This document shows, one piece after another, positions 757 through 1,825 of a stretch of 64,000 bases of DNA; position 1 is the stretch's first letter; the number at the start of each line of letters is the position of its first letter. Where the stretch lies: the NCBI GenBank assembly GCA_963780185.1, contig CAWABA010000005.1:32001-96000 (forward strand), written 5' to 3'. The notes under the pieces were generated by a model. The model was not told the DNA's origin, did no database searches, and saw only the letters and a list, made by a program, of their open reading frames with translations. This stretch comes from Candidatus Bathyarchaeota archaeon. GTDB taxonomy: Archaea; Thermoproteota; Bathyarchaeia; Bathyarchaeales; Bathycorpusculaceae. The position numbers and the translations under genes are program-made.

Positions 757-771
757 AATAACGGTGTTATA
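757..771. promoter_or_regulatory. Palindromic operator copy 1 (AATAACGGTGTTATA) between divergent metY and the HTH-CBS gene
   Basis: Near-identical to the copies at 1412-1426 and 1811-1825; consensus TATAAC-N3-GTTATA. Confidence 0.7.
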
Positions 772-832
772 GGTGTTTTTGCGTTTTTTATTCCAAAAAG
801 AATAATTAGCCGAACAAAAGCCTATACAAACC

Positions 833-1387
833 ATGCTTCCAGCCCTAACTGACATAGCTAAGAAAAGGCGCCAACTCGGTCTGAAACAAGCCGAACTCGC
901 AAAGATGGCAGGCGTCAGCCAATCCCTAATCGCAAAGCTGGAAGCCGGAAAAATCGATTCCTCCTACACCAAAGTAAAAACAATTTTTGAAACCCTTGAG
1001 CGACTGGAAGCCAAAACCAAGCTTTCGGCTGGCAAAATGTTCCAAACCGAAGTCATCAGCGTCCAACGAAATGATCCAGTCGCCAAAGTCGTAGAATTGA
1101 TGAAGACCCACGGATACTCGCAGCTTCCTGTTTTTGAAGGAAAGCACTCAGTCGGCAGCATATCAGAGAAAACCATTTTGCGTCAAATCTTAGATGGAAA
1201 AGGTTTACCCCAGATTTCACAGATTGCCACGGGAGAAATTATGGAGGAGGCATTTCCGCAGGTGGGCGAGGATGCGCCGTTGAGTTTGATTTCTGATCTT
1301 TTACAGGTTTATTCTGCTGTTCTGATTTCCCGAAGGGGCAGAGTTGTGGGTATTATTACTAAGGCTGACTTGCTTAGGATGATTTAG
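833..1387 (+). CDS. XRE-type HTH transcriptional regulator with C-terminal CBS pair (COG3620-like)
   Basis: N-terminal HTH (LGLKQAELAKMAGVSQSLIAKLEAG) plus two CBS motifs (YSQLPV...VGSISE; VVGIITKADLL). Confidence 0.9.
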   Translation: MLPALTDIAKKRRQLGLKQAELAKMAGVSQSLIAKLEAGKIDSSYTKVKTIFETLERLEAKTKLSAGKMFQTEVISVQRNDPVAKVVELMKTHGYSQLPVFEGKHSVGSISEKTILRQILDGKGLPQISQIATGEIMEEAFPQVGEDAPLSLISDLLQVYSAVLISRRGRVVGIITKADLLRMI

Positions 1388-1411
1388 GGGCAGGGAAAAC
1401 AATTTTATAAG

Positions 1412-1426
1412 TATAAGCGTGTTATA
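1412..1426. promoter_or_regulatory. Palindromic operator copy 2 (TATAAGCGTGTTATA)
   Basis: Lies directly downstream of TATA-like TTTTATAA (1403-1410) and just before the start at 1429. Confidence 0.65.
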
Positions 1427-1428
1427 GT

Positions 1429-1755
1429 TTGAGGCAAATGAATCCCAGATGCGAAGCCATCGGCAAATATGTTGTTCCCCTTTTCAGGTCACTTGTTGCA
1501 AAAGAACTCATCAACACCTATAACCTCACGCAGGTCGAAGCGGCGCATCGACTGGGAACAACTCAGGCAGCCATAAGCCAGTACATTAATTCGAAGAGGG
1601 CAATCAGGGGGATGGAGCAGTTCGACGATATAGTTCCAAAGATTCAGGCGATGGCGAGCGAGACGGCTAAGCGCCTTGCTAATAAAGAGATTACCTCAGA
1701 TGAAATGACTGTGGATTTTTGCAAGCTGTGCGTTTCTTTTTGCTGTAAGCCGTGA
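1429..1755 (+). CDS. Small archaeal HTH transcriptional regulator (COG2522-like)
   Basis: PxCE N-terminus, HTH LTQVEAAHRLGTTQAAISQYINSKR, C-terminal FCxxC. Confidence 0.85.
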   Translation: MRQMNPRCEAIGKYVVPLFRSLVAKELINTYNLTQVEAAHRLGTTQAAISQYINSKRAIRGMEQFDDIVPKIQAMASETAKRLANKEITSDEMTVDFCKLCVSFCCKP

Positions 1756-1810
1756 AGGCGTTTGGTTTTTGGTCTGGGTACCGTAAAGGTTTTAAATATC
1801 TTAGCCTGAC

Positions 1811-1825
1811 TATAACGGTGTTATA
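1811..1825. promoter_or_regulatory. Palindromic operator copy 3 (TATAACGGTGTTATA) upstream of cysK
   Basis: Perfect 6-bp arms, between TATA-like TTTAAATA (1791-1798) and the GGAG SD of cysK. Confidence 0.75.

Follow-up and report, generated by a model that had tools for sequence, protein, structure and literature searches.

Which protein reads the short palindrome TATAAC-N3-GTTATA that recurs between the first genes of a 64,000-nucleotide stretch from a Candidatus Bathyarchaeota archaeon, and which genes does it control? The stretch, called the window in this work, is C5:32001-96000 of assembly G000 (2,752,879 bases, 13 contigs, 46.6% G+C). According to the list of open reading frames (ORFs) and the family profiles, its first 4 kb are composed of five genes: metY, the gene of a regulator with a helix-turn-helix (HTH) domain and a CBS pair (HTH-CBS), the gene of a second, small HTH protein, cysK and cysE. 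The palindrome, box A hereafter, is found before several linked operons and across species, in the genus of the window and in three other genera of the order, and we have very little doubt that this regulon is real. With moderate confidence we favour a model in which box A is a sulfur/cysteine operator in Bathyarchaeia, bound most likely by the small HTH, a protein of 105 amino acids, acting as a repressor.

Placement and conservation of box A

Box A copy 1 (AATAACGGTGTTATA, 757..771) is located in the gap between the divergent metY and HTH-CBS genes, at a distance of 37 nt from the ATG of metY and of 61 nt from that of HTH-CBS, copy 2 (TATAAGCGTGTTATA, 1412..1426) between HTH-CBS and the small HTH, 11 nt upstream of the small-HTH ATG, and copy 3 (TATAACGGTGTTATA, 1811..1825) between the small HTH and cysK, 18 nt upstream of the cysK GTG. 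The initial annotation had described three copies of one palindrome, one per gap; positions and gaps are correct, but only copy 3 is a perfect palindrome, the other two carrying one mismatch each, in copy 2 at position 6. The window holds six sites with at most two mismatches versus 1.17 +/- 0.96 expected, a number which none of 100 shuffles reached, and the remaining three matches (8083, 29081 and 59304) carry two mismatches each. In the whole G000 genome there are two perfect, three one-mismatch and 63 two-mismatch sites, and three of the five sites with at most one mismatch fall inside 1.1 kb of a genome of 2.75 Mb. The fourth of these five (TATAACAACGTTATA) lies in the gap that separates cysS from a tRNA-Cys gene, 52 nt before cysS, and the fifth precedes an ORF without family match.

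Conservation was followed in related genomes, 61 of which were searched with the small-HTH protein at E <= 1e-30. Within the genus, 24 of the 36 genomes have an ortholog, and so do most of the order's other families. In a first set of 30 relatives' loci, where a box was called at up to one mismatch within 110 nt upstream of the regulator, box A precedes the regulator in 28, the exceptions being L022 (three mismatches) and L030 (two); several of these 28 loci have no Cys/Met gene adjoining. In the same set a one-mismatch box precedes the ATG of metY by 27-41 nt in 15/15 loci, and cysK has a box with zero or one mismatch in 8/9, the ninth having two mismatches. A second set was composed of 80 further loci from public genomes, nearly all of them metagenome-assembled genomes of Candidatus Bathyarchaeia/Bathyarchaeota and some of the same species. 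Here the regulator's own promoter carries the box within 60 nt in 79/80 loci, 11-20 nt from the start (mode 14), metY in 49/49, and cysK, at up to one mismatch, in 33/36, of which 27 are perfect; random 60-nt windows drawn from the same 80 loci carry it in 119 cases out of 4000. The box of the regulator itself is in no case perfect, with G, T or A instead of C at position 6 in 78/79 of these loci. The initial annotation had taken the palindrome for the operator of a Cys/Met regulon, had placed one copy in the promoter of the Cys-bearing small HTH itself, and had made its case depend on conservation in orthologous clusters. All of this holds at the regulator, metY and cysK promoters, with a scope that is broader in sulfur metabolism, as described below.

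A weight matrix was built from 56 box A sites of regulator, metY and cysK loci. Its ATAA and TTAT cores are invariant; since the spacer favours A or G at position 7 and C or T at position 9, the half-sites would effectively be 7 bp long. When G000 was scanned with this matrix, as proposed in the initial annotation, the four top matches were those at cysK (24.4 bits), cysS (20.2 bits), metY/HTH-CBS (19.9 bits) and the regulator (19.8 bits). A fifth match (TATAAGCGTGTTATG, C7:173396-173410, 16.8 bits) has no gene start adjoining and lies about 220 nt past the 3' end of an ORF which resembles, by eye, the secreted-looking ORF at 4041-4793 of the window.

Archaeal TATA boxes are located about 25 nt before the transcription start. 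In the window, a putative TATA element precedes copy 2 in the small-HTH promoter (TTTTATAA, 1403..1410, plus strand) and another precedes copy 3 in the cysK promoter (TTTTAAATA, 1790..1798, plus strand), both read from the sequence, which agrees with the earlier observation that two of the boxes lie just downstream of such elements. The layout is conserved at both promoters: a TTTATTAAG / TTTTATAAG block immediately 5' of the box is kept in orthologous small-HTH promoters, and orthologous cysK promoters have a TATA-like block 8-14 nt before the box, the end of which is 12-35 nt before the start codon, with flanks that diverge. In metY promoters a T/A-rich run directly follows the box, and then 27-41 nt lead to the ATG. 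From these distances we infer that in the promoters of the small HTH and of cysK box A covers the site where transcription is expected to start, and at metY the edge of the TATA box and TFB recognition element (BRE). Because the box would span the predicted start at two promoters and this edge at the third, the geometry resembles that of a repressor site, and repression is likely.

The small HTH as candidate reader of box A

Box A is assigned to the small HTH chiefly because operator and recognition helix co-vary across four subfamilies of its family, 56 members of which were aligned together with their upstream DNA. Subfamily A, that of the window protein, has the recognition helix TTQAA[IV]SQY and the own-promoter palindrome ATAAC-N3-GTTAT (36/38). 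Subfamily B combines SQ[ST]A[VI]S[RK]Y with ATGAC-N4-GTCAT, often in tandem (14/14), subfamily C PAA[IL]TQY with TTAAC-N3-GTTAA (2/2), and subfamily D SQ[PS]AISLY with ATTAC-N4-GTAAT (2/2). Among the 56 members, the promoters of a given subfamily carry that subfamily's palindrome, and the other three palindromes are absent from them. This points to self-binding, in which each subfamily protein would bind its own palindrome, and we consider it probable that the small HTH is the binder of box A.

G000 also encodes a subfamily-B paralog (C7:89622-89999; L261 3108-3497), which was considered as binder of box A and rejected, as it carries its own, different tandem boxes: two ATGAC-N4-GTCAT boxes are located just before a TTTAAATA element, genus-wide. 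On the 3' side of this paralog there are genes for an HtrA-like protease (Trypsin_2 and PDZ domains) and a CoA_binding_2 protein, and its divergent neighbour encodes a winged-helix protein of 315 amino acids. Elsewhere in the family, a cysK-like gene is the divergent neighbour of one subfamily-C gene.

The gene of the small HTH (1438..1755, plus strand) was taken to start at ATG 1438 rather than at TTG 1429. Its 105 amino acid product matches HTH_3 (PF01381) with 26.6 bits against a cut-off of 23; a distant subfamily-A member (25.0 bits) is also above the cut-off, and subfamilies B, C and D are below it (15.5-21.6 bits). No ArsR or winged-helix (wHTH) profile reaches its cut-off for this protein, no Rrf2 family is present among the Pfam and NCBIfam matches at E <= 0.01, and the profile matches include no Pfam or NCBIfam model dedicated to the small-HTH family. 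The protein has the features of an archaeal 'PCE...FCxxC' family, which are an N-terminal cysteine (Cys 5), the HTH and a C-terminal CxxC (95, 98). This family counts 2432 relatives at E <= 1e-5, and among the 120 of these matches that were listed no named source goes beyond a generic name. An Atlas look-up, to be read as a lead only, returned similar clusters in Bathyarchaeota, Methanobacteriota and Thermoplasmatota.

In an alignment of 37 subfamily-A sequences Cys5, Glu6, Cys95 and Cys98 are invariant, and the three cysteines are also invariant across the four subfamilies (24 sequences). The window's protein ends with Cys102-Cys103, a pair shared, within the 37 sequences, with its closest relative (L005/G035) only, and longer family members carry an extra C-terminal CxxC/H...CxxC segment. 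The AlphaFold2 (AF2) model (pLDDT 85.3) is composed of six helices; Cys5 is located where helix 1 begins, and helix 6 contains Cys95 and Cys98. The search for solved structures related by sequence found none (best E 0.061), Foldseek returned only weak matches of the XRE/Cro type (best E 0.12, TM about 0.3-0.45), and the VIA wide fold search gave Z <= 6.1, which is within the range for unrelated helical proteins. The initial annotation had proposed the sensing of thiols or sulfide; a thiol switch is one option for the sensing chemistry, a metal or an Fe-S cluster being the others. Because of the content of the regulon in relatives, a signal of Fe-S or sulfur status would be the most attractive reading. 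In the part of the literature covered by full-text searches no description was found of an archaeal regulator of this kind for cysteine synthesis or Fe-S assembly, nor of this family, motif or regulon.

Scope of the regulon, second palindrome and cluster genes

In other families of the order the box is found before a wider range of genes. Most small genomes of the order are without cysK, a match at E <= 1e-60 being present in 4 of 24, yet they retain the regulator together with its own box. The single-contig genome G052 has nine perfect sites, of which four precede one gene each of the metY-like, cysK-like, DsrE-type and class-V aminotransferase kinds; among the remaining five, one is before a flavodiiron protein, three are before ORFs without family and one is between convergent genes. 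Its regulator is preceded by a one-mismatch site. The class-V aminotransferase is the same one that follows the TusA gene in G060. In G050 the seven sites covered, out of eight, precede an FTR1 gene, an IscS-like/IscU-like pair, a divergent ThiF/ThiS pair, a ThiI-like gene beside FdhD, a NifU-like gene, the regulator and an ORF with a SHOCT domain. In G053 the six covered, out of seven, precede a ThiI-like gene, a ThiF gene, a fragment of a PALP enzyme, the regulator, a sugar-isomerase-like gene and an ORF without family. Across G050, G053 and G060 the box-preceded genes also include TusA with the aminotransferase, and DsrE. Read from these gene contents, the shared theme is sulfur mobilisation and sulfur carriers, Fe-S assembly and Cys/homocysteine synthesis, and the regulon is narrowed to Cys/Met synthesis in the genus of the window.

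Alignment of 15 intergenic regions between metY and HTH-CBS revealed a second palindrome, box 2 (TATTCC-N4-rGAATA), which in the window is TATTCCAAAAAGAATA at 789..804, 28 nt upstream of the HTH-CBS ATG, and which is a candidate operator of HTH-CBS. At up to one mismatch, and 25-31 nt from the HTH-CBS ATG, it is present in 21 of the 22 upstream regions that were usable (a 23rd row, L012, was left out as it has no upstream sequence), and in a larger set in 48 of 53, with 38 hits in 4000 random windows. G007 has lost box A and retained box 2. In G052, where HTH-CBS and metY are 350 kb apart, box 2 precedes both, at metY about 20 bp upstream of box A, and close HTH-CBS orthologs were found only in genomes with metY. 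Because box 2 tracks HTH-CBS and recurs at an unlinked metY, and because orthologs occur only together with metY, box 2 is likely the operator of HTH-CBS, whose role would be centred on metY.

The HTH-CBS gene (833..1387, plus strand, 184 amino acids) belongs to the class of HTH regulators with a CBS pair, with HTH_3 at residues 8-55 (40 bits) and CBS in two stretches (60.8 bits). CBS pairs are generally readers of adenosyl ligands. On the minus strand, metY (3..719) encodes an O-acetylhomoserine sulfhydrylase / homocysteine synthase (Cys_Met_Meta_PP, E 1.4e-74; NF006096 / TIGR01326), of which the window holds the 5' part only, the remainder being beyond the window start. The O-acetylserine sulfhydrylase gene cysK (1844..2794, plus strand) starts with GTG and matches TIGR01139 with 475 bits against a cut-off of 351. 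The serine O-acetyltransferase gene cysE (2863..3918, plus strand) matches TIGR01172 at residues 168-336. Upstream of cysE no box A was found, the best match there having 4-5 mismatches, and for this reason cysE is probably co-transcribed with cysK. The N-terminus of CysE (window 2863-3360) is an extension of about 165 amino acids without family match, and in translations from relatives without the small HTH this extension opens with a Cys-rich stretch. A tRNA-Cys(GCA) gene is located at 4880-4955, about 1 kb downstream of cysE, and a second one is found on the same contig (L001 2843-2918; G000 C5:16842-16917), divergent to cysS, with the fourth box of the genome between it and cysS.

Rival readings, proposed mechanism and known systems

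A number of observations weigh against box A being a sulfur/cysteine operator read by the small HTH. Box A is not in excess in G000, where the five sites with at most one mismatch compare to seven for a reversed-pattern control; the signal is therefore one of placement and conservation, not of abundance. The box at cysS is present in only 2 of 30 loci of the genus, those of G000 and its closest relative G035. As it is common only to the nearest relative, cysS was rejected as a conserved member and its membership is weak. The sites of G052 at the flavodiiron protein, the family-less ORFs and the convergent genes have no link to sulfur. No small-HTH ortholog was found in 12 of the 36 genomes of the genus; when four of these (G008, G017, G019 and G021) were searched again with a profile at E <= 1, the subfamily-B paralog was the only match, apart from a pseudogene in G008. 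Finally, in six of the ten genomes without detectable small HTH ('HTH-less' hereafter) where the cysK promoter is readable (G008, G009, G017, G018, G019 and G021) the cysK box is kept at the same position with zero or one mismatch, with diverged spacers and flanks. G008, G017 and G019 are 97-100% complete, the other three 56-88%, and G017, G019 and G021 are also without HTH-CBS and metY. As these six genomes retain the cysK box, a second protein may read it in HTH-less genomes, or the gene may have escaped assembly.

In other genomes the box has decayed along with the absence of the small HTH: the cysK boxes of G006, G007, G024 and G036 have 3-4 mismatches, and the metY boxes of G008 and G024, both without the small HTH, have two. 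The co-occurrence of motif and regulator, proposed as a check in the initial annotation, is thus partial, four of ten HTH-less genomes having lost the cysK box and six keeping it without detectable small HTH. The remnant of the small-HTH gene in G008 (L088; G008:C13:109331-109417) has one TGA and one TAG inside, and the same genome has a perfect cysK box. Other sites in HTH-less genomes were rejected as regulon members, since they are within AT-rich, probably mobile DNA or adjoin unrelated ORFs; one of them in G008 is 133 nt from a thioredoxin gene. In L076 (G019:C15:27389-27535) two boxes 132 bp apart lie in very AT-rich DNA with small ORFs, probably mobile or viral, and look like chance matches.

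The six HTH-less genomes, in which a perfect or one-mismatch cysK box appears to be under selection, are the strongest argument for a different transcription factor as binder of box A, with the small HTH merely one of its targets; three of the six also lack HTH-CBS. This would require that four subfamilies had acquired four own-promoter palindromes matching their helix changes, which is hard to explain unless each protein binds its own, and we regard a different factor, the strongest of the rivals, as rather unlikely. An Lrp/AsnC-type gene offers itself, as it adjoins cysE convergently in this group (L050-L055, from G021, G019, G009, G024, G008 and G017) and has an ortholog of 87% identity in G000, located elsewhere (C11:54997-55347). 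It was rejected as binder, since the G000 ortholog has no box of up to one mismatch or of at least 12 bits at its position and G024, where the Lrp gene adjoins cysE, is without a cysK box.

HTH-CBS, encoded within the cluster itself, might bind box A alone or with the small HTH, and the initial annotation had thought of the two as possibly working together. In 13 of the 14 distinct sites where HTH-CBS and metY diverge, copy 1 precedes the HTH-CBS start by 58-61 nt (15 of 16 rows, two contigs being present twice; G024 has two mismatches). HTH-CBS appears, however, to have a separate palindrome, the one at 789-804 that is tied to metY. This box 2 lies 25-31 nt upstream of its start in 21/22 and 48/53 loci, and in G052 the unlinked metY is accompanied by box 2 and not by the HTH-CBS gene. 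Close orthologs occur only where metY does, while box A is present in many loci and genomes without HTH-CBS, so that its binding of box A is very improbable. We give even less credit to the palindrome being an AT-rich core-promoter element, an RNA hairpin or chance rather than an operator. The half-sites do contain TATA-like letters, the genome-wide frequency equals that of the control, and some sites of relatives are in AT-rich, probably mobile DNA. Nevertheless, both the small-HTH and the cysK promoter have a separate TATA-like element before the box, the letters of the half-sites are conserved beyond mere complementarity while spacers vary, one box serves divergent genes, and conservation reaches 79/80 loci.

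With the small HTH as the preferred reader, the mechanism could be as follows. The regulon of G000 includes metY, the regulator's own gene and cysK-cysE, with a further box between cysS and tRNA-Cys. The XRE-like protein would bind box A as a dimer and block RNA polymerase or TBP/TFB when the supply of sulfur, cysteine or Fe-S is sufficient, the signal probably being read via the invariant Cys5, Glu6, Cys95 and Cys98 as metal, Fe-S cluster or thiol switch. The imperfect position 6 of the own box could be a deliberately weaker autoregulatory site, which would allow the protein to build up before it represses its own gene. At metY a second input would come from HTH-CBS bound to the palindrome at 789-804, probably on an adenosyl ligand.

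A more far-reaching proposal, which we put forward only tentatively, is that the family of the small HTH senses Fe-S clusters or persulfides by means of an XRE-like fold, as an archaeal protein equivalent in function to the bacterial IscR, with Cys5, Glu6, Cys95 and Cys98 as ligands. In Bathyarchaeia, the targets of subfamily A would be sulfur mobilisation, Fe-S assembly and Cys/Met synthesis, the sister subfamilies would read ATGAC, TTAAC and ATTAC half-sites for other regulons, and at metY an adenosyl signal would be added via HTH-CBS. Bathyarchaeia are abundant and largely uncultured, and their regulation is therefore now readable mainly from sequence. This case provides a concrete candidate pair of protein and operator, three sister specificities and a second regulator-operator pair at the same promoter. 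Should the cysteines hold a cluster, the small HTH would represent a structurally new way to sense the status of sulfur or Fe-S.

Among known systems, the dimers of the XRE, Cro and C-protein type share with the small HTH the HTH core, as judged from the weak Foldseek matches, and are small dimeric regulators acting on own-promoter palindromes; the long N-terminal helix and the two Cys-bearing C-terminal helices of the small HTH are without a solved counterpart. SurR, the sulfur-response regulator of the Thermococcales, is a winged-helix protein with an N-terminal CxxC redox switch and a different published motif. It resembles the small HTH in its archaeal origin, in the CxxC motif, in a regulon related to sulfur and in an operator that is a short inverted repeat, but in the small HTH the CxxC is C-terminal and would pair with an N-terminal cysteine, and no winged-helix profile is above cut-off. 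CymR, the Rrf2-family master regulator of cysteine metabolism in Firmicutes, needs CysK as partner and is not known to have sensing cysteines. It represses through a shared operator at cysK and at methionine and cysteine synthesis genes, as proposed here, and differs from the small HTH in fold and domain of life.

A further comparison may be drawn with IscR, the bacterial Rrf2-family regulator of the isc and suf genes, which senses an Fe-S cluster with three conserved cysteines and a non-Cys candidate ligand. The small HTH differs in being XRE-like without Rrf2 match and archaeal, in having its cysteines at both chain ends and a cluster that is only putative, and in its regulon, which in the window's genus is one of Cys/Met synthesis. 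Like IscR it would be a small autoregulated DNA-binding protein with three conserved cysteines and one non-Cys candidate ligand, and in relatives its box A regulon includes cysteine desulfurase and scaffold genes of the IscS/IscU/NifU type.

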